From a virus (Duplodnaviria > Heunggongvirae > Uroviricota > Caudoviricetes): a stretch of 47,426 nt of DNA. Location of the stretch: positions 1 through 47,426 of IMG/VR virus record IMGVR_UViG_2778261504_000010, one strand, 5' to 3'. Numbering within the stretch: the first letter of the stretch is position 1; the number at the start of each line of letters is the position of its first letter. The position numbers and the translations under genes are program-made. The notes beneath the pieces were generated by a model. The model had not been told where the DNA came from. It saw only the letters and a list, made by a program, of their open reading frames with translations, and searched no databases. Positions 1 through 47,155 of the stretch are shown here, piece by piece.

Positions 1-162
1 TGCTCGCCCTGAGGGCCGGTATCACCTTTAGGACCCTGTTCACCCCGTGGCCCTTGCTCGCCCTGAGGGCCGGTATCACCTTTAGGACCCTGTTCACCCC
101 GTGGCCCTTGCTCGCCCTGAGGACCTGTGTCGCCTTTAGGACCTGTTTCTCCCTGCGGGCCT
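1..162. repeat. 54-bp tandem direct repeat, two identical copies (1-54, 55-108) plus a degenerate third (109-~162), coding for collagen-like triplets
   Basis: Unit tgctcgccctgagggccggtatcacctttaggaccctgttcaccccgtggccct repeats exactly at period 54. Confidence 0.85.
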
Positions 163-782
163 TGCGGTCCTGGTGTTTTTGCAATCTCTTTCGCTTCTTC
201 CAGCGCTGTCAGTGCACCGGACTCGTGCAACTCCGCGTTTTTTGCTGCCTGTTCTGCACGATCTGCATCCAGTGAAACCGAAGACACAATTTGTTCCACG
301 TGCTTTTTATCTTCGGCAACGGATTCTGCATTCTGCTGTACGTTATCCGCCAGCGTCTCGCAGTCGCTCTTAATTTGTTGCGCATCAGCGACATGTTGCC
401 CGGCCTGTCGTTCGCTTTTCGCTGCCGCTTCCGCGCTCTGCTGCGCCTGCGCCACCATTTCCTCAAAGCGTTTCACTACATCCGGCTTTAAATCGCCTTC
501 ATCAAGGGCAGTCAGAAAATCATTCAGTGTGCCGGGCTTTGAGTCGTCGTAAACCGAAATGTCACCCACGCAGCACTTAGGGCCGTTCTTTTGCTTGATG
601 TGTACGGTGTATTTACCTTTTTGTGCTTCAAAGGCATACTGTCCCGCCGCATCGGTTTCAATAACCGCAAATGATTCAGTGACCACTTCACTGGTATTAA
701 CCAGTGCATCTAAATAAATTTTGCATTCCGCCATCGGAACGCCAGCGCCATTAATCAGCGCCCCTGAAATTAATACAGACAT
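1..782 (-). CDS. tail fibre protein, N-terminal 260 codons (gene runs off window start); lambda Stf-like N-terminus then collagen-like Gly-X-Y repeats
   Basis: My translation from ATG at 782-780 (GAGG 5-8 nt upstream): [27 protein letters not shown]...[27 protein letters not shown]...[29 protein letters not shown]. Not in ORF track because truncated. Confidence 0.65.
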
Positions 783-827
783 AGAGCCTCTGAGTGATAA
801 AAAACCGCCTGCTGGCGGCTGTGGAAT

Positions 828-1403
828 TTATTCAAAGTCTGACCAGTCGATATCTGGTGCATTTTCCGGTTGAATACGATTTAACTTTATTCGTAATTTT
901 CTGAGGGCTGTCAGTTGCTCCTGTTCCTCTGGTGTTGCTTCACCAAAATCAACAGCATCCTGTAAGATTGCGATTTGTTCTCCAGTCTGTTTCAGCAGGC
1001 TGGCTTTCTTTTCTGCCGCCTGATTAATCAGCGCATCACGCTTCGCCTCTTCATCCGTCACCCACTGACTGCCATCCCAGCGCTGGTATTCTCCGTCTGG
1101 TGCAATAAATGTGACATTTTCAGGAAGTTCCCCCAGTTCAGATATCGGGACTGCATTTCCGGTTTCTGTTGAATAAACCGTTTCCCCCCGATGGTCTTCA
1201 ACCAGACGCCATGAATTGTCAGCAGTATCAAACATTGCTGTAAAACCTTCGGGGATTTCCGGCGGTACAATATCCGTACAGTTTGCGGGTAATCCGGTAT
1301 GAGGCGGTATATAAGCGTCACCACTGCCGATAAATTCTTTTGTATCTTCAAGAAAATTAAATACACGAATGGTCCGTGCTTTATCGCTCATTTTAAAAGT
1401 CAT
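828..1403 (-). CDS. tail fibre assembly protein (Mu U-like)
   Basis: 191-aa ORF immediately downstream of tail fibre gene, overlapping stop/start; position and size typical of Tfa chaperones. Confidence 0.7.
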   Translation of the reverse strand: MTFKMSDKARTIRVFNFLEDTKEFIGSGDAYIPPHTGLPANCTDIVPPEIPEGFTAMFDTADNSWRLVEDHRGETVYSTETGNAVPISELGELPENVTFIAPDGEYQRWDGSQWVTDEEAKRDALINQAAEKKASLLKQTGEQIAILQDAVDFGEATPEEQEQLTALRKLRIKLNRIQPENAPDIDWSDFE

Positions 1404-2437
1404 TATGCAAGCCTCACAATATAGTTAAATGCGATGTTTTTGACGGTGTTTTCCGTATTGCCCGCAGCGTTAACGGTGATGGTGTGTCCGTGTGGACCAA
1501 TAGCAACGGAGTGTGCATGTGCACCAATTGGAACAGCGTGCGCATGGTTACCTGTAGTGTTTGTGACACCAGACCAGGTTCTGGAAGCGTTAAAGTTTAC
1601 AGGAACACCATAAGTAAAATTAGAACCCGTAAATCCATGGGATGCCGCAGAGCCACCCAGTGTAAATGCTCCACTTGCTGTATAGAAATTACCGCTATCA
1701 CTCCTGAAGTAACCGAGAGTACCGGTAATTTCCATAGTGCCTCGGTTGTGGTTATGGTCACCAGTGGCATTTGAAGACTTAGTACCATAATCAAACGACG
1801 ACGTGGTTTTCGTCCCCAAATCCGTACTGGACGCACTGGCACTGTGGGCGTGTGATTTAATGCCGTCCTGCTCCTGAGACAATACAGCACGACCACTGGC
1901 AGGCTTACCCTTGATTGTCCAGCCCCGCATATCCGGGATAATCCCGGATGGGTAGACAGCTGCAAGTTTAGGGTAAGAGCCTTTATCAAAGCTCTGCCCC
2001 TGCATTAAGGCATAGCCGGGTGGCACTGAATCAGACGGCCACGGTATTGGGGTACCTACCGGTAAAGCCACTCCCTGCAATTCTGTTATTTTTTCCGCCA
2101 GTGATTTTACTGCCTTTGGTGTGGCTGCTTCCGTTTCTGAATCACTGTCTGTTGCGCTACTGAGCTGAACGATGCCCTTCTTCGTTAATGATGCGTCAGG
2201 AACTTTTTTCCCGACATATTGCGATATAGCATCAACCAGTTGATTTTGTTTCTTCGGGTCCGGTGATATATCAGCCGCACGGAGCAAATTAATAAGTTCC
2301 TGTTGCAGGTCACGAATGGCTCCCTGCTGATTATTCATGTGTTCAGCATAAACAATAGTGCCCTCAATGCCCTGAGTGGGGTCACCATCGTGAAACAATT
2401 GATCCGGCGTATTCACCGGAGGCATTAAATTCTGCAT
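1403..2437 (-). CDS. tail fibre protein (Mu S-like) with His-rich HxH C-terminal tip
   Basis: 344 aa; motif [31 protein letters not shown] as in P2 H/Mu S fibres; C-terminus [23 protein letters not shown]. Confidence 0.8.
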
Positions 2438-3009
2438 TACTGCTTATCCTCATACGTGAAATAACAGTCTGTAAAAGCCGGTTTAAGGTCTTTAAACGTG
2501 TTTTCTAAAATGGATTCACCAAAAGCTGTCAGCGGTTCGCCTGTTGCAGATGCGCCCGTTCTGAAACGGTATACCGGCGTTTTTGCACCAATAACATTGA
2601 CCTGCCATACCCAGCGCATTTCAGGGATAAACAGACGGTCACCGCAACGATTTACCCCGGTGTGAAAGGCTCGTGGTTCGGTTATCGTTATGGTGTATCC
2701 CAGGCTTGCGGCCAGATTTTTAAAATAGGGAATGGACAGCCCGCCCGTTGCCGCCATTTTTACCAGGATGTTCTGCCGCCGCTCCTGTTGGGTTGCCCCT
2801 TCACGGGGGACAACACCATACACGCGCTCCCAGTCGGACAGTGTCATTGATGCCTGCAACGGGGTGATTTGTGCCAGAACGCGCGCCGCTGAGGCCTTCA
2901 CGGCCTCCATGACGTTAGCCTCGGCTGTCAGCTCCGCGGAAATATATTTCCCGTTCAGGTCATAACTGACCGGCGGCAGCATGACGCGGAATAAATCGAC
3001 TGTATTCAC
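2437..3009 (-). CDS. tail/baseplate protein (Mu gp48-like)
   Basis: 190-aa ORF in conserved position between baseplate J-like gene and tail fibre; start overlaps upstream stop. Confidence 0.55.
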
Positions 3010-3012
3010 GAA

Positions 3013-4092
3013 TTAACCCTCCCGGGGAAATGGCTGAATATCAATATTTCCGGGGCGCAGCCATTCCCACGTTGACGCATTAATCACGGCTTTTACATTC
3101 CCGTCAGGCGTGATTATTTTTCTGTCACTCACACCGGAAATGAGTGAAATCTGGGTTTCCAGTTGTGAAATAATTAATTCCTGCCCCGGCTCCAGTCGGT
3201 TCATGAAATCCGTGACAACGTCAGTTATCTGCGGTTTTATCTGCTCAACGGTCAGGCCGCTGGTTTTTACCCGGACAACGAAATCAACGGTTTTTTTCGT
3301 CGGAGCCAGTACCATCGTGTCCTTCGCTGTAACCGGGCGGACTTCCTCAATATGTGCCAGCACGGCATTGATCAGTTCCTGCGAGGGGAGGTCATTGGCT
3401 GACGTAATAGCCACATCAACAGTACCTTTCCCTCTGCGCAATGGCTCCACATATGCAGACGTAACGCCATCCACTTCCAGCGCCCAGCGTTTGTAATCAT
3501 ATTTATTACCGCCAGCGGGCGGCCTGCGCAGAATATCCAGATAACGCGCCAGCAGGTCGGCGTCGCTTTCCCTGTCCGTTCCGCCGGTCAGGGATTTAAT
3601 CGTCACCGTGCTGTTGATGCCTTCCGGTGGGCTGACCAGCGTTGCCGTCTGCGTCGTGGATGCATTCGTCTGTGCACCCGTGGCGGTGCTTTTTACCGTC
3701 ACCTCTGCGCTGCCTTCATCACCGATGGTGCACTCTGCGGTGGTGGTCACGCTGACACCTTCACCACGAATTTCCGCACCGGCTGGCAGCGTCTTACCGG
3801 GTGTGCCGGTAATCACTGCCTGACCGGATGAGGCCGTTGCCTTTTTACGAAAAACATTGCGCGTACGACAGTGCAGCTCCAGATATTCAGGGTCTGCCGT
3901 ATCAGGAAACACCTGACGGAGTATCCACCCCTGATGCATATAAAGCCCGTCAGCCACGCCGGATACGGCATTTGCACGAATGCGGTAATCGCTGTCAGCG
4001 CCGGTGTCGATGGTTTCTCCCGGCAGGGCGTTAGCGATATCACGTAGCTGGCGTTCTGTGTTTTCAGCAACGCCCGGAACAGGAAACGGCAT
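3013..4092 (-). CDS. baseplate J-like protein (Mu gp47-like)
   Basis: 359-aa ORF, position and size in baseplate module. Confidence 0.7.
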   Translation of the reverse strand: MPFPVPGVAENTERQLRDIANALPGETIDTGADSDYRIRANAVSGVADGLYMHQGWILRQVFPDTADPEYLELHCRTRNVFRKKATASSGQAVITGTPGKTLPAGAEIRGEGVSVTTTAECTIGDEGSAEVTVKSTATGAQTNASTTQTATLVSPPEGINSTVTIKSLTGGTDRESDADLLARYLDILRRPPAGGNKYDYKRWALEVDGVTSAYVEPLRRGKGTVDVAITSANDLPSQELINAVLAHIEEVRPVTAKDTMVLAPTKKTVDFVVRVKTSGLTVEQIKPQITDVVTDFMNRLEPGQELIISQLETQISLISGVSDRKIITPDGNVKAVINASTWEWLRPGNIDIQPFPREG

Positions 4093-35170: not shown

Positions 35171-35459
35171 TGGTTTTATAGGCCAAGAACCCTTGGCCTT
35201 ATCTAATTGATACAATCAACCCGATCTAAATCATCATAATCATCTTAAAGCCTGCTTGGTTAAATGTATTAAAAACAACCTAAGTTTGCTGCATAATCTG
35301 AGCAAATTCACCCAGAAAAAAACGTAAAAAAAAGCATTTTTGCGCATTTTCTTCAAAACGATCCAGAATCGGTGAAATCTCCCACATCCCGCACCAATCA
35401 AGGCCTACAGGCTTATATTGACTGCTCGGACTCAGCCCAGAATTGATCACCACCCCACA
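35171..35459. mobile_element. Mu-like prophage terminal region (transposase-binding end) and junction with host
   Basis: Non-coding; AAAACG/CGTTTT-type motifs at 35321-35370; element ends ...ccaca at 35459, where the ynfF reading frame breaks. Confidence 0.5.
35181..35205 (+). terminator. terminator-like hairpin after the 209-aa gene
   Basis: Stem ggccaag/cttggcc (35181-35198) followed by T-rich ttatctaatt. Confidence 0.4.
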
Positions 35460-36586
35460 CAACCCTGACAAATATAAGCAGGTTTTGCTGAACCGATCTC
35501 TCGTGCCAACTGGATAATTTTTTCTGCCGGGATGCTGGTGATTTTTGCTGCCCATTCCGGCGTTTTAGCTATGCCGTCAGGCCCTTCGCCCAGAATATAG
35601 GCTTTATAATGCGCGTTACGTGGTGCGTTGGCGGGCAGCGTTTTTTCATCGTAACCAACACAATATTTGTCGAGAAATGGCTGATCGACCATGTTTTCAG
35701 TAATCAGTACCCAGGCAATCGCACAGGCCAGTGCGCCATCGGTGCCAGGGCGAATGGGCAGCCATTCATCTTCACGCCCGGCAGCAGTGTCGTTATAACG
35801 TGGATCGATGACGATCATGCGTGCGTTTGAACGTTCGCGGGCTTGCTCGACGTAGTAAGTGACACCACCGCCGCTCATCCGCGTTTCTGCCGGGTTATTT
35901 CCGAACATAACGACCAGTTTCGTATTGGCGATATCATCCGGGCTGTTGCCATCATTGGCACCGAACATATAACTCATTGCGGCACTGATCTGTGCGGTAC
36001 TGTAGCTGCCATAGCGACTGAGAAAACCACCGCAAGAGTTCATCAGACGGTACGGGACGTTTGAGTTGGTGATGTTTCCGCCATCTACGCCTGTTCCGTA
36101 CAGGACATGTACAGCCTCATTGCCGTAATCTTTCAGGATCCGCCGAAGATTATCACTGATGGTATCCAGGGCTTCGTCCCAACTTATCCGTTCAAATTTA
36201 CCTTCACCGCGCTTGCCGACGCGCTTCATGGGATATTTCAACCTATCAGGATGATTCATCCGTCGGCGGATAGAGCGCCCGCGTAAACACGCTCGAACCT
36301 GATGGTTACCGTAGACGTCGTCACCTGTCGTATCAGACTCCACCCAGTACACGGTGTCATCTTTCACATGCAAACGTAACAGACAGCGGCTCCCGCAGTT
36401 AACGGTGCAGGAACTCCAGACCGCTTTCTCTTCTACCGGAGCCTCTGCCGCCCGGACCATTTGGGAAAATGGCAGAGTGAAAGCACTGCTTGCCAGCGCA
36501 AGACTGCCAAGTGCGGAGGTTTTCATCAGACTTCTACGGCTGATTTCAGCCTTCATGAGCGCCTCTGTGGTATGGATTTTCATCAT
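35450..36586 (-). pseudogene. ynfF: ynfF', 5' fragment of DMSO-reductase-family catalytic subunit truncated by the prophage
   Basis: 378 aa with Tat motif SRRSLMK; paralogous to the full-length downstream gene up to ...AKPAYICQG, then CVGW-stop where the paralogue continues WGPQRQ. Confidence 0.75.
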
Positions 36587-41792: not shown

Positions 41793-41997
41793 GAACATAA
41801 ATCCATTTTATCAATAAGATAAGAGGAAGTGTCAGCTGACAAAAGGTATTCTATTTCATCTTTTGTCAACCATTCACAGCGCAAATATACGCCTTTTTTT
41901 GTGATCACTCCGGCTTTTTTCGATCTTTATACTTGTATGGTAGTAGCTCAGTTGCGTAGATTTCATGCATCACGACAAGCGATGCAAGGAATCGAAC

Positions 41998-43212
41998 ATG
42001 AAGATCGTAAAGGCTGAAGTTTTTGTTACCTGTCCGGGGCGTAATTTCGTCACATTAAAAATCACCACTGAGGACGGTATTACGGGCCTTGGGGATGCCA
42101 CCCTCAATGGACGTGAGCTTTCCGTGGCCTCTTATTTGCAGGATCACCTTTGTCCGCAGCTTATTGGTCGCGATGCGCACCGTATCGAAGATATCTGGCA
42201 GTTTTTCTATAAAGGTGCTTACTGGCGTCGCGGTCCGGTTACGATGTCGGCCATTTCAGCGGTTGATATGGCGCTGTGGGATATTAAAGCCAAAGCTGCC
42301 AACATGCCGCTTTACCAGTTACTCGGCGGCGCGTCTCGTGAAGGGGTGATGGTTTATTGCCATACCACCGGTCACAGTATTGATGAAGCTCTGGATGATT
42401 ATGCCCGTCATCAGGAGCTGGGATTCAAAGCCATCCGCGTGCAGTGCGGAATCCCTGGTATGAAAACCACCTACGGCATGTCGAAAGGTAAAGGTCTGGC
42501 TTATGAACCCGCAACCAAAGGACAGTGGCCGGAAGAGCAGCTGTGGTCGACGGAGAAATACCTCGATTTCATGCCGAAATTGTTTGACGCGGTACGTAAC
42601 AAGTTTGGTTTTAATGAACATTTGCTGCATGACATGCACCATCGCTTAACGCCTATTGAAGCGGCGCGCTTTGGTAAAAGCATTGAAGATTATCGCATGT
42701 TCTGGATGGAAGACCCGACGCCTGCGGAAAACCAGGAATGCTTCCGTCTCATTCGCCAACATACCGTCACACCCATCGCAGTGGGTGAAGTCTTCAACAG
42801 CATCTGGGACTGCAAACAACTGATTGAAGAGCAACTCATCGATTATATCCGCACCACGCTGACCCATGCAGGCGGAATTACCGGTATGCGCCGGATTGCC
42901 GATTTTGCTTCGCTGTATCAGGTACGTACTGGCTCACACGGTCCTTCCGATTTGTCACCAGTCTGCATGGCTGCGGCGCTGCACTTTGATCTGTGGGTCC
43001 CCAATTTCGGTGTCCAGGAGTACATGGGTTATTCCGAACAAATGCTCGAAGTCTTCCCGCACAACTGGACTTTCGATAACGGCTATATGCATCCGGGAGA
43101 CAAACCGGGTCTTGGCATCGAATTCGATGAAAAGCTGGCGGCGAAATATCCCTATGAACCTGCTTATCTGCCAGTCGCACGTCTGGAAGATGGCACGCTG
43201 TGGAACTGGTAA
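41998..43212 (+). CDS. rspA: starvation-sensing protein RspA (enolase-superfamily dehydratase)
   Basis: Start at [27 protein letters not shown] with AAGGA RBS. Confidence 0.85.
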
Positions 43213-43223
43213 GGAGTAAGGTA

Positions 43224-44243
43224 ATGAAAAGCATTTTAATTGAAAAACCGAATCAACTGTCGATTATCGAACGTGAAATACCCACCCCGTCAGCGGGTGA
43301 AGTACGAGTAAAAGTGAAACTTGCCGGAATTTGTGGTTCAGATAGCCATATTTACCGTGGGCATAATCCTTTTGCGAAATATCCGCGCGTCATTGGTCAT
43401 GAATTCTTTGGCGTCATTGATGCGGTGGGTGAAGGTGTGGAAAGCGCCAGAGTCGGTGAACGCGTTGCTGTCGATCCGGTGGTCAGCTGTGGGCATTGCT
43501 ATCCGTGCTCTATAGGTAAGCCGAACGTTTGTACGACACTTGCTGTATTAGGTGTGCACGCTGACGGTGGTTTCAGTGAATATGCCGTGGTTCCGGCAAA
43601 AAATGCGTGGAAAATTCCTGAAGCAGTGGCCGATCAATATGCGGTGATGATCGAACCTTTTACCATTGCGGCTAACGTTACCGGTCATGGTCAACCGACT
43701 GAAAATGATACCGTTCTGGTTTATGGTGCCGGTCCAATCGGCCTGACGATCGTTCAGGTATTAAAAGGCGTCTATAACGTTAAAAATGTGATTGTTGCCG
43801 ATCGCATTGATGAACGACTGGAAAAAGCGAAAGAGAGCGGGGCAGACTGGGCGATTAATAACAGCCAGACACCGCTTGGCGAGATTTTCGCTGAAAAAGG
43901 CATCAAGCCGACATTAATTATCGATGCGGCTTGTCATCCTTCTATCCTGAAAGAGGCCGTAACGCTGGCTTCTCCAGCGGCACGTATTGTATTGATGGGC
44001 TTCTCCAGTGAACCGTCTGAAGTGATTCAGCAAGGAATTACCGGAAAAGAACTCTCTATTTTCTCTTCACGCTTAAATGCAAATAAATTTCCGGTTGTTA
44101 TCGACTGGTTAAGTAAAGGGTTAATTAAACCAGAAAAATTAATTACCCATACGTTTGATTTCCAGCATGTTGCTGATGCCATTAGTTTATTTGAACAGGA
44201 TCAAAAACATTGCTGCAAAGTCTTGCTCACTTTTTCTGAATAA
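43224..44243 (+). CDS. rspB: starvation-sensing protein RspB (Zn-dependent dehydrogenase)
   Basis: Start at MKSILIEK; GHEFFG and Cys-rich zinc motifs. Confidence 0.85.
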   Translation: MKSILIEKPNQLSIIEREIPTPSAGEVRVKVKLAGICGSDSHIYRGHNPFAKYPRVIGHEFFGVIDAVGEGVESARVGERVAVDPVVSCGHCYPCSIGKPNVCTTLAVLGVHADGGFSEYAVVPAKNAWKIPEAVADQYAVMIEPFTIAANVTGHGQPTENDTVLVYGAGPIGLTIVQVLKGVYNVKNVIVADRIDERLEKAKESGADWAINNSQTPLGEIFAEKGIKPTLIIDAACHPSILKEAVTLASPAARIVLMGFSSEPSEVIQQGITGKELSIFSSRLNANKFPVVIDWLSKGLIKPEKLITHTFDFQHVADAISLFEQDQKHCCKVLLTFSE

Positions 44244-44430: not shown

Positions 44431-45726
44431 TTAATTTTTCATTGATTCGTTATGGGGCATGGTTGGGGCAAACTCGCTTAACTGTGTATTTAACAAAGCT
44501 ACCTGTGCATTATTGTTTTCAGACATCCATTTTCCGTATACCTGAAATACCATTTGCGCATCTGCATGGCCCATCTGGTTTGCTATAAATGCCGGGTTAG
44601 CACCAGCTGTCAGCGACCAGCAGGCATAAGTATGTCTCGACTGATATGATTTGCGGTGGCGGAGGCCAGCGCGCTTTATCGCTGCGTCCCACATCTGCCT
44701 TATTGAGTCAACGGTAAAATGGTCACCATAATTTTTTACTCTCACTGACACTTCAGGTTGAAAAACAAAGGTGCATTTTTGTTTTTCTGTTCTGCCGAAC
44801 TCTCTGAGGTGAACGTCAATAATATGTTCTTTGCTCAGCCTCGTTAGTGTCATCTGACTCCTGAGAGCGTCGATTGCAGGCTTGATAAGGTGAATTACCC
44901 GATTGGTACCAGCCTGTGTTTTCGGTACCGTAAAACGATCTTTTGCTAAATTTCTCCTGATCATCATTGTTCCATTTTTCAGATCTATGTCCTCCCACCC
45001 AAGCGCACACAGTTCACCAGGGCGAATGCCTGTATAAACAGAAACACACCATAAATTTTTGGCCTGCTGATTTCTGCAGGCATCGATAAGACGGATAAAT
45101 TCCTCCCGTGAAAGAGGATCAGGAATGGTTCTTGATTCCTTTAATGGCGAGATCCCCTTAAACGGATTATCTGCCAGGTAACCGTTATCAACACCAAACT
45201 GGAACACGGCGTAAAGATTTGTCATGTAATTATTTACGGTGACAGCCGATCTCCCCGGTTGTGTAACAATATAATTACTTTTTGGGATCTGGTATCCAGT
45301 AAGTAACTCTTTACGTACCGCCAGCAATTTTTCTTTATTAATCGACGATGCAAGATTTTTTTCACCGATTATGCTCAGAATATTTTTGATGACGGCACGG
45401 TACGTGTTGAGTGACGTTTTTGCGACTTCCGTTTCTTTCAGTGCCAGAAATTTTTCAGCCAGTTCCTTTATGGTTAAATCTTGTCGGGCCTCACCAAATT
45501 TTTCCAGATTGTGTGAGGAGGGAAACTGTTTTGCATAGTCGAAAACGCCGGTTTTTATTGCATAACAAACAGAGGCGCGCAGCTCACCTGCAATGCGCCT
45601 GTTTTTTGTCGTGTCAGGAACCCCCAGATTTTCCCTGACTCTTACACCTTTATAAACAAACCAGATACGTAATTTCCCTCCATGGTTTTCCACGCCTGTC
45701 GGATATTTCATTTTAGCTTCTCTCAT
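44431..45726 (-). CDS. tyrosine-type phage integrase
   Basis: C-terminal catalytic region with HTYACW and GHADAQMVFQVYGKW; true start may be the internal MKYPTG. Confidence 0.8.
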   Translation of the reverse strand: MREAKMKYPTGVENHGGKLRIWFVYKGVRVRENLGVPDTTKNRRIAGELRASVCYAIKTGVFDYAKQFPSSHNLEKFGEARQDLTIKELAEKFLALKETEVAKTSLNTYRAVIKNILSIIGEKNLASSINKEKLLAVRKELLTGYQIPKSNYIVTQPGRSAVTVNNYMTNLYAVFQFGVDNGYLADNPFKGISPLKESRTIPDPLSREEFIRLIDACRNQQAKNLWCVSVYTGIRPGELCALGWEDIDLKNGTMMIRRNLAKDRFTVPKTQAGTNRVIHLIKPAIDALRSQMTLTRLSKEHIIDVHLREFGRTEKQKCTFVFQPEVSVRVKNYGDHFTVDSIRQMWDAAIKRAGLRHRKSYQSRHTYACWSLTAGANPAFIANQMGHADAQMVFQVYGKWMSENNNAQVALLNTQLSEFAPTMPHNESMKN

Positions 45727-45745
45727 TGGTTAGTATTGTTTTTAG

Positions 45746-45997
45746 TCAAGTAAGATGACGTCTTGGTCTTGCTGATGCCTGACGTTCAATCCAGCGATCA
45801 ATTTCTTCCAGGTTGTAAAAGCATGGGCTGTTATCCCATGGCATACCGTCATGGGCTACATGCTTATATTCCCTTCCTTCCATAAACGATTTTTCCCTGG
45901 CTTTTTTTAGCGTTCCTTTTTTTATTCCTTTCAGCGCAATTAGCTGTTCTTCGGATACCCATTTACCGGGAGAGACAATCATGATTACTTCGCTCAT
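45746..45997 (-). CDS. excisionase-like small protein
   Basis: 83-aa basic ORF immediately upstream of integrase; assignment by position. Confidence 0.45.
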   Translation of the reverse strand: MSEVIMIVSPGKWVSEEQLIALKGIKKGTLKKAREKSFMEGREYKHVAHDGMPWDNSPCFYNLEEIDRWIERQASARPRRHLT

Positions 45998-46066
45998 CGC
46001 TTTTATCTCTTACTTCAGATGAGCGCCGGTTGCAGAATACCAGTCACAACCGGCGATGGTTGAACA

Positions 46067-47155
46067 TTAAAAATCAGCCTGACTCGGGATCAGTTTTTGT
46101 ATCGTAGCTGTAACGTATTTTGCCTGGTGACGGGCATCATCCAGCGCATTGTGGCGCACGCCTTCAAATGGAATAACTGTTCTGGCATCAAAGTCGATTG
46201 TTTTTCCCAGCTCAACGATTGTGCGTACATCGCGATCGTTGTAGTAGCGCCACGGGCAGGGGATGTCCAGACGTTCGTATGAGGTGCGCAAAATTGCGTT
46301 ATCGAAAGTTGCACCATTACCCCATACCTGAACGAATTTTTCATCTGAGTATTCGTTGATGAACTCCCGAAACCGCGAAAGGGCATCCTTCAGTTTTACC
46401 TGGTCTGTTAAAATGGCAGCTCTGGCTTCACTGGACTGCTTCAGCCACCATTCGATGGTTCCACCGTTAGGAACAGCCCCTGTATTCATTGCGTCAGTCA
46501 GACTGATAGCGATATAAAATACTGGCCCGATTTCCCCTGTTTGTGGGTCGAAGAAAACCGCACCAATAACCACGATGGGCGCATTGGTGTTGGTTCCCAT
46601 TGTTTCAAGGTCGATCATCAGGTGATACCACACTCTGCTGGTGGATGTGATAACGTGATGACCGTTCACCGCAATTAAGGGATCTGCCGTCTCGCCAGTT
46701 TCATTATCGCTGGCGTGGTCCTGAGCGCTGCCAGCATTCTCCTTGTGTGGATGTTCAGCGTCTTCCATTTCCTCCGGATCATTTTCCTGAACTTCAACCT
46801 GATTCTCTTCATCGAATGTTTCCTGGTATGTTGCGTCGCCCATCACCGCGCCACAATCAGGGCAGTTGCCGCCACCGCTCTGACCGCAGGCGGTGCAGAC
46901 TTTTTCCGGCTCCTGTTGCGCTACTGGTTCAACCTGTTTCGTTTCTGGCTCGTTTTGTTGCGCATTTGGGCTGTTTTGTTCCGTTTTCTGGTCGTTCTGT
47001 TCCGATTCTTGCTGGTTCTGGTTTGCAGAGTCGCGGGTTTCAATCCCCTTCACCCATTGCGGATCATTCGGGTCGCTAATCCCTGCAACAAATTCTCCGC
47101 GAGAGGCAGCAAGCAACTTATCGGCGTCAGGCTGGCTGATATTGGCTGCCTGCAT
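46067..47155 (-). CDS. exonuclease-domain protein with acidic Gln/Glu-rich N-terminal region and Cys4 motif
   Basis: 362 aa; [16 protein letters not shown]; C-terminal MIDLETMG...[12 protein letters not shown]...HNALDDA resembles DEDD-type 3'-5' exonucleases as recalled. Confidence 0.5.

Follow-up and report, generated by a model that had tools for sequence, protein, structure and literature searches.

What does a Mu-like prophage carry at the end of its genome where phage Mu has an inverted S'/U' fibre pair, and can a fibre gene at that place add a second receptor specificity without DNA inversion? The question is raised by the first 782 nt of a 47,426-nt stretch of viral DNA (IMG/VR record IMGVR_UViG_2778261504_000010, positions 1 to 47,426; here called the window), which hold the 5' part of a tail-fibre gene on the minus strand. 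Judged by its gene content and flanks, the window holds a Mu-like transposable myovirus prophage in Escherichia coli ynfF, running from the middle of its last large gene past its left end. We consider it likely that this last gene is a second, accessory tail-fibre gene of the prophage, which would encode an anchor, a helix, a collagen stalk of variable length, and a receptor-binding domain, and which would belong to a terminal cassette without an inversion switch.

An earlier sequence-only reading of the window had proposed an extra, co-oriented fibre gene with its own start behind the S-like and U-like genes, and the reading frame bears this out. It begins at an ATG at 782-780, 4 nt behind a ribosome-binding site read from the sequence (GAGG, 790-787, minus strand), and stays open for 260 codons to base 1 with no stop; the window product comprises the first 260 codons only, the stop codon and the C-terminal domain falling outside the window. 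Pfam assigns residues 1-134 of this product to phage_tail_N (PF08400, E = 6.6e-50, over the full profile length) and residues 204-260 to Collagen (PF01391, E = 1.5e-9 for the truncated tract). The Gly-X-Y run spans residues 205-258, and the collagen-like (Gly-X-Y)n tract as a whole, which the window edge cuts, takes up residues 205-260 and onward (positions 1-170, minus strand). In the DNA, this tract coincides with a tandem array of three units of 54 nt, or 18 codons, at 1-162, for which Tandem Repeats Finder reports a period of 54 nt across 1-147 (2.7 copies, 94% matches, score 259). The repeats had been described as exact and as encoding G-P-x triplets. Units 1-54 and 55-108 are indeed 100% identical, but the unit at 109-162 matches at only 80% (unit labels A-B-B), and the translated triplets are Gly-X-Y, with G-P-x at alternate triplets only. 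The array and the fibre gene are real and lie far beyond chance. Since the window edge cuts the array, the copy number in the source strain is known only as at least three.

The resemblance of the N terminus to lambda Stf, also noted from the letters alone, holds up as homology of the collar domain. Residues 1-93 (504-782, minus strand), which make up the anchor or collar domain, a transthyretin/CarboxypepD_reg-like beta-sandwich, align in a phmmer search of the PDB to residues 1-93 of the Ur-lambda Stf collar domain (9e7m/9mgh, E = 7.9e-17) and, more weakly, to the neck-binding domain of gp40 from the Vibrio myophage XM1 (7kjk, E = 4.4e-5). Against lambda orf-401, tblastn gives 42.7% identity across residues 1-110. 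An AlphaFold2 model of residues 1-203, built from a 26-sequence alignment (mean predicted local distance difference test score, pLDDT, of 81), shows the beta-sandwich followed by an unbroken helix at 100-202 with a pLDDT of about 90. Foldseek searches with this model return 9e7m first (TMt 0.87, E = 1.1e-8) and 7kjk second (TMt 0.63, E = 4.9e-7), and the next matches are the neck fibre of cyanophage A-1(L) (8keg) and a podophage tail protein. The single long alpha-helix, predicted for residues 100-203 (174-485, minus strand) from the model and from the architecture described for related prophage proteins (PMC3368898), presumably forms a trimeric coiled coil.

The sequence past the window edge, where the sequence-only reading had advised looking for a gin-type invertase, was read from relatives: 13 Mu-like prophage copies, five of them from four complete E. 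coli genomes (STEC316, Z1323CEC0011, Z1323CEC0014, and TUM9812 with two copies) and eight from contigs encoding a 191-aa assembly protein identical to that of the window. The gene order is the same in all 13 (gp48, fibre, assembly protein, hairpin, phage_tail_N fibre, and DUF4376 protein), and in 12 a conserved terminal motif, ...CGCGAAGTTACA or, in its longer form, ...CCCAGAAAAAAACGCGAAGTTACA, follows about 70-85 nt past the DUF4376 stop codon, with different host DNA beyond it in each copy. The host genes at the insertion likewise differ among the relatives. A prophage end so close behind the DUF4376 gene leaves no space for gin, an inverted fibre pair, or mom, and no gin or inverted S'/U' pair was present in any of the 13 copies. 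Within the window, no G-segment-type inverted repeats (of about 34 bp) were found at the fibre genes, positions 1-3000 holding only weak inverted repeats, and a crude motif scan found no Gin/Hin-like open reading frame (ORF). The earlier statement that no invertible segment is present therefore stands as far as the relatives show, and neither of the observations that had been named as speaking against the reading as a whole, a gin/inverted pair immediately beyond the window and an invariant repeat number, was made among them.

In those relatives whose fibre is of the same collagen type, the array runs on into a small receptor-binding domain. The full-length relatives of the second fibre gene encode 474-852 aa (Pfam Collagen E = 6.6e-85 in the full-length TUM9812 allele) and finish in a C-terminal domain of about 150 residues ending ...TANGTTLFQRIR, for which we found no Pfam match (PF06820 included) and no PDB sequence match. 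PHROGs places both the second fibre and the DUF4376 protein in tail-fibre families. In Alteromonas phage V22, the fibre cannot function without the chaperone gp27, whose BLASTp relatives, without exception, have a DUF4376 domain at the C terminus (PMC7289586); the DUF4376 protein from the gene adjoining the second fibre gene may play a comparable role.

Next, we asked how far the length of the collagen tract varies. Array lengths were taken from complete genomes, the homologues of residues 1-203 being nearly all partial and cut at contig ends. Eleven complete alleles that share the C-terminal domain have Gly-X-Y runs of 120, 138, 141, 195, 318, 354, 372, 444 (in three alleles), and 498 aa, a range of about 6.7 to 27.7 units, and the suggestion that repeat number can change is thereby confirmed. 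In nine of these 11, whole 18-aa units account for all but 12 residues of the run; both Z1323 alleles (141 and 195 aa) have 15 extra residues instead, the end of their array being different. The ORF is intact in every one of the 11 alleles, and the length differences are always in frame. Given a unit of 18 codons, the reading frame survives any gain or loss of units, so that the array works as a length dial and not as an on/off switch. The alleles of Z1323CEC0014 and Z1323CEC0011 sit in the same prophage at the same site beside rarD, with upstream flanks that are 99.95% identical, and their unit strings, [0,1,2,1,3,4,1,3,4,5] and [0,1,2,1,3,4,5], differ by a single tandem block of three units (162 nt). 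The 11 lengths look bimodal, at about 7-11 and about 18-28 units, although the sample is too small to speak of a preferred length.

The rise of a collagen triple helix is about 0.29 nm per residue. At this textbook value, each unit would add roughly 5 nm to the stalk, and the known alleles would span roughly 34-142 nm.

Some further observations concern the alleles themselves. The three 444-aa alleles (24.7 units) sit on three different phage chassis, Mu-like, pPE4-like, and P2-like (loci L009, L017, and L020). The array of the P2-like prophage of E423 (L018, 2102-4120) has 17.7 units made from only two distinct 54-nt sequences, with 15 identical adjacent pairs, and has either expanded very recently or been assembled wrongly. 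The two TUM9812 copies, with 27.7 and 7.7 units at 3.92 Mb and 2.75 Mb, were considered as a case of length change within one genome after transposition. This was rejected, since the copies are only 99.4% identical upstream and 95.7% identical downstream and so stem from separate lysogenisations and not from a recent transposition. Finally, the Prokaryotic Genome Annotation Pipeline (PGAP) used for RefSeq calls intact short alleles (495, 492, and 474 aa) pseudogenes "missing C-terminus" (L002, 9233-9782; L006, 6071-6620; L007, 6071-6620), apparently because they are compared with longer alleles, which makes the flags an annotation artefact of the repeats.

A second kind of variation concerns what is attached to the anchor. 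Among the Mu-like copies, hardly any variation is seen in the anchor domain and the upstream hairpin, and the distal part of the fibre is of at least five types, namely, collagen and four non-collagen types ending LFVRAT, LFVRIE, LFVRVA, and LFMRIA; a near-invariant anchor with a switching distal part is what one would expect if an anchored fibre binds receptors. Outside this group, the same cassette of coiled coil, collagen, receptor-binding domain, and DUF4376 gene lies directly after gpD in the P2-like prophages of E9, E423, E41, PSS-15, and VTB97432v and is also present in a pPE4-like prophage (TUM1881). The first ~70 residues differ between the Mu-like, P2-like, and pPE4-like chassis, and the join falls at a conserved segment starting VGDI(S/A). 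Chassis-specific anchors in front of a shared cassette are the mark of a receptor-binding module that is exchanged freely and joined to the anchor proper to each chassis. No earlier account of PF08400 fibres on phages of the Mu-like or P2-like kind came up in literature searches, with a coverage that was incomplete and that makes this weak evidence of novelty. Among isolated phages, the closest match to the anchor (73% identity) comes from PP818812.1, "Actinobacillus phage vB_Apl-pPE4," recorded from Actinobacillus pleuropneumoniae; its fibre region is closely like that of E. coli prophages (cf. TUM1881), and the recorded host looks odd.

The kind of fibre to which these alleles belong has been known since 2012 (Ghosh et al.). 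The EPcl proteins of E. coli prophages consist of a PfN domain, a coiled coil, a collagen domain, and a C-terminal globular domain; EPclA and EPclB are trimeric, their collagen helix is thermally stable, and electron microscopy shows them to be dumbbell-shaped; and the collagen length varies between copies from 27 to 322 residues, the latter being called "by far the longest" (PMC3368898). Types A and B carry a trimerising PfC domain (PF06820) at the C terminus, whereas the C-terminal domains of types C and D are unrelated to PF06820 (PMC3368898). The window product has the PfN domain, a predicted helix at the place of the PCoil region, between PfN and collagen, and the collagen domain, and it shares with the EPcl family the order PfN (PF08400)-coiled coil-(Gly-X-Y)n-C-terminal domain, the prophage tail-fibre context, and length steps in multiples of three residues. 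By its domain sequence, it thus appears to be a member of the EPcl family and, with a C-terminal domain that in the full-length relatives is not PF06820, fits the EPclD type. By analogy with the EPcl proteins, the second fibre may form a trimer with a collagen triple helix. The EPcl proteins were, however, tabulated mainly from lambdoid and Shiga toxin prophages of enterohaemorrhagic E. coli, whereas the present fibre belongs to a Mu-like myovirus and its cassette is also found on P2-like phages. Further differences are the regular array of 54-nt units, alleles with up to 498 collagen residues, and the DUF4376 partner downstream. The sequence-only reading had recognised neither that this protein type was already described nor that the window edge is probably an assembly break. 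What the locus offers is a tidy example of a known fibre type in a particular context: a terminal add-on cassette without G inversion, shared with P2-like phages and ranging from about 7 to about 28 units.

Comparison with three better-known fibre systems delimits this context. With lambda Stf, the second fibre shares the homologous N-terminal collar domain (41-45% identity, TMt 0.87) and the helical region behind it, which is a trimeric bundle in Stf; a further likeness is that Stf of Ur-lambda is a non-essential accessory fibre that speeds adsorption (PMC12617516). Stf, however, has no collagen tract and ends in a T4 gp37-like, OmpC-binding tip that is assembled by Tfa, whereas the relatives of the present fibre end otherwise and are followed by a DUF4376 gene instead of one for Caudo_TAP. 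Moreover, the tail to which Stf attaches is non-contractile, with a ring of 12 domains at its exposed gpV/gpM junction, whereas the genes of the present chassis include those for a tail sheath and for a baseplate of the Mu type. The gp40 of XM1 (7kjk, PMC10457771) resembles the second fibre in its Ig/transthyretin-like N terminus of ~100 residues, its coiled coil of ~100 residues, and its distal receptor-binding part; XM1, too, has a contractile tail, and its gp1 connector has the Mu gp36 fold. The two proteins are nevertheless only ~23% identical, the distal part of gp40 is a tailspike and not collagen, and neck attachment has been demonstrated for XM1 only. With the Mu G segment, finally, the cassette has in common that it comes after gp47/gp48, where a transposable phage has its right end, a second receptor specificity, and a hairpin after U. 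In contrast to Mu, there is no inversion, no gin, no constant S region shared by the two fibres, no inverted S'/U' pair, no pair of flanking inverted repeats, and no mom, but a separate, co-oriented gene with an anchor of its own, so that the two fibres could be made together rather than alternately.

Taken together, this leads to a model in which a chassis-specific beta-sandwich anchor of ~93 residues would fix the fibre to the virion, followed by a helix of ~100 residues, presumably a trimeric coiled coil, and by a collagen triple-helix stalk of 18-residue units that near-identical 54-nt repeats would encode. A receptor-binding domain of ~150 residues, presumably folded with the help of the adjacent DUF4376 protein, would form the tip. 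Fibre and chaperone would make up the last module before the prophage right end, where Mu has inverted S'/U', gin, and mom, and the phage would carry two co-oriented fibre genes, possibly expressed jointly, without an inversion switch. Unequal recombination or slippage would add or remove whole units in frame, changing the length of the stalk, and possibly adsorption and host range, while keeping the gene active.

If this model is correct, the second fibre has to be expressed, and the signals in front of the gene are ambiguous in this regard. The 45-nt gap between the stop codon of the assembly protein (828) and the fibre ATG holds a terminator-like hairpin at 803-820, with a 7-bp stem and an AGCA loop, and a run of six U residues (whole element 797-820, minus strand). 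The folding energy of the hairpin is unremarkable (z = -1.25) and weak by itself, and the case for a function is thus carried by position and conservation only: the hairpin is kept in all Mu-like relatives, its stem being preserved in a variant with a shorter loop, and in Mu, too, a hairpin lies at the corresponding point, between U and U'. A promoter scan near the second fibre gene gave nothing above chance. On the P2-like and pPE4-like chassis, the fibre gene follows the preceding gene at 23-24 nt, with no hairpin in between. Expression in the Mu-like prophage might occur by partial read-through of the late tail transcript.

Several points weigh against an accessory fibre of this kind. A terminator-like hairpin directly upstream, together with the lack of a promoter signal above chance, makes expression of the second fibre a matter of supposition from the sequence. 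In Ur-lambda, 12 collar domains sit at the gpV/gpM junction and are connected by flexible linkers to four trimeric fibres (PMC12617516); this dock is an exposed siphovirus tube-tip junction, which is absent on a sheathed Mu-type tail, so that incorporation of the present fibre into the virion can be put forward only conditionally. Furthermore, it is only in relatives, with 96-99% identity over the part in common, that a receptor-binding domain, a chaperone gene, and the end of the prophage were seen, and for the window's own prophage these are presumed. Last, part of the differences in copy number could be long-read assembly errors.

This last point touches on a broader alternative, namely, that short reads collapsed the array at a contig end, leaving the identical units and the copy number in the window biologically uninformative, for which we see about an even chance. 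The label "partial" is attached to all of the database proteins closest to residues 1-203, which are P0001 (245 aa, with 102 member sequences) and P0002 (300 aa), the contig encoding P0002 stops inside the array, and the window ORF itself runs to base 1 without a stop; the start of the window at base 1 is probably a draft assembly broken by repeats. However, complete, mostly long-read genomes carry the same array, including adjacent identical 54-nt units (one pair each in TUM9812, E9, and GCA_027276865, six in TUM1881, and 15 in E423), so that the perfect repeat in the window is plausible biology and the repeat is real even with its number here unsettled. A collapse would, in any case, affect copy number only and not the identity of the gene. 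If, in turn, the gene lay in a switchable segment, with an invertase of the gin type and a second set of fibre genes in inverted orientation just past the window, the cut at base 1 would hide them, and Mu, SfMu, and D108 do carry a G segment and gin at this end. Yet the 12 relatives with a conserved TG...CA-type terminus leave only 70-85 nt behind the DUF4376 gene, no inverted repeats surround the first or the second fibre gene, the crude scan of the window yielded no Gin/Hin-like ORF, and the phage is only distantly related to Mu (29% identity in gp48), all of which makes a hidden invertase exceedingly improbable.

The remaining alternatives accept the gene but deny it a function in the virion. 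It could be a dead passenger, a fragment of a lambdoid stf captured at the prophage end and either unexpressed or unable to dock on a contractile tail; the terminator-like hairpin, an anchor domain known to bind the siphovirus tube-tip junction, and the pseudogene flags on several alleles would all be accounted for. The inspected alleles, however, are all intact ORFs with in-frame length changes, and the flags are artefacts. The anchor is just ~43-45% identical to lambdoid anchors, near-invariant in the Mu-like group, and different on P2-like and pPE4-like phages, which points to selection to fit each chassis. The cognate DUF4376 gene is always next, the module is present in all inspected Mu-like relatives at many insertion sites, and the fusion of chassis-specific anchors to a shared cassette argues strongly against a passenger, so that we regard this explanation as quite improbable. 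Alternatively, the gene might be a moron, a lysogenic-conversion adhesin for animal tissue that resembles the streptococcal Scl proteins and is no part of the virion. Bacterial collagen-like proteins are often adhesins, and the extreme end of a prophage, behind a terminator, is a typical place for a moron. But the product has neither a signal peptide nor a cell-surface anchor and begins with an anchor domain of the kind known from phage fibres; the promoter scan gave the gene no promoter of its own; its partner is a gene of the fibre-chaperone type, both products being assigned by PHROGs to tail-fibre families; and on the P2-like and pPE4-like chassis it stands close behind the tail genes, with no hairpin. 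A moron is therefore very improbable.

For an accessory fibre on a sheathed tail, the question of the docking site arises. The neck of XM1 carries six trimers, held to the head-completion and tail-terminator proteins by a domain of this type, which is followed by a 100-residue coiled coil (PMC10457771). This precedent, the match to the neck fibre of A-1(L), and the Mu gp36-like fold of XM1 gp1 make a neck location of the second fibre conceivable by analogy. It is tempting to extend this and to speculate that, on Mu-like, P2-like, and pPE4-like phages, the anchor-collagen fibres are not baseplate fibres but neck (collar) fibres docked in the manner of XM1 gp40, with the number of units setting their reach, and that they stand in for G inversion in the Mu-like lineage; in this full form, we consider the proposal rather unlikely. 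If it were true, the stalk would make either a short whisker of ~35-55 nm or one of ~90-140 nm, plus the coiled coil, long enough to reach the cell surface alongside the baseplate, and the array would serve a portable receptor-binding cassette as a length dial that stays in frame and evolves fast.

Should the second gene encode an accessory fibre, wherever it docks, a Mu-like lineage that is widespread in E. coli would gain a second receptor specificity through a separate add-on cassette and without DNA inversion. The cassette of collagen stalk, receptor-binding domain, and DUF4376 chaperone would then be one that moves among unrelated contractile-tail chassis, recombining just past the chassis-specific anchor, and the 54-nt array would provide a natural series of fibres of ~34-142 nm, useful for testing the effect of length on adsorption. 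There is also a practical side: as the array breaks short-read assemblies and misleads PGAP, this fibre will be overlooked or misread when host range is predicted from draft genomes.

The remainder of the window accords with a Mu-like chassis. Pfam identifies a tail sheath, Mu gp37-like and gp36-like neck proteins, a gpT-type head protein, a Mu portal, a Mor-family activator, MuA- and MuB-like genes, and, at the repressor position, a protein with a Mu DNA-binding domain. The baseplate-J (gp47-like) gene at 3013-4092 and the Mu gp48-like gene at 2437-3009 (both on the minus strand, by Pfam) mark the Mu-type baseplate module. Transposition genes, Mu-type head, neck, and baseplate, varied insertion sites, and TG...CA ends are thus all present, the prophage ends reading TGTCAGGG... 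(left, inward) and ...GTTACA. Beyond the left end, host DNA of ynfF/ynfE restarts at about 35460 and is 100% identical to that of many E. coli. The phage nevertheless appears, from its proteins, only distantly related to Mu itself: the gp48-like protein is 29% identical to Mu gp48, the first fibre is 42% identical to Mu S over 95 aa only, confined to the Phage_fiber_2 motif, and BLASTP of the window assembly protein against Mu U gave no significant match. Given this weak similarity, the terms S-like and U-like hold by position and family and not by close homology.

The first fibre (S-like, 344 aa; 1403-2437, minus strand; Pfam Phage_fiber_2 and Collar) is presumably a baseplate fibre, judged by its position after gp48, and is followed by the U-like tail fibre assembly protein (Caudo_TAP, E = 2.8e-33; 828-1403, minus strand). 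An identical 191-aa assembly protein is encoded in 288 blocks of the assembly collection, and those inspected all share the gene order. The distal half of the first fibre and the assembly protein (828-2066, minus strand) are ~80% identical in nucleotide sequence to the Stf tip and Tfa of the lambdoid phages mEp460, PhiR42_1, and lambda. By these similarities, the phage carries a lambda-Stf tip on its presumed baseplate fibre and a lambda-Stf anchor on its second fibre.

The left end of the prophage (junction at ~35459/35460) splits ynfF, which encodes a selenate/tellurate reductase subunit, and leaves a 379-aa 5' fragment (35447-36586, minus strand). It bears a GCCCAGAATTG motif, an inverted copy of which lies near the right ends of relatives; the GCCCAGAATTG motifs are probably transposase-binding repeats. 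Farther on, after an rspA-like gene (Pfam MR_MLE enolase superfamily, 41965-43212) and rspB (43200-44243, named by position only), the region 44431-47155 (minus strand) holds genes for a tyrosine integrase (Arm-DNA-bind_2 and Phage_integrase) and for a protein with a 3'-5' exonuclease domain (Rv2179c-like), and seems to be where another prophage begins, this one of the integrase type and probably located at the Qin site.

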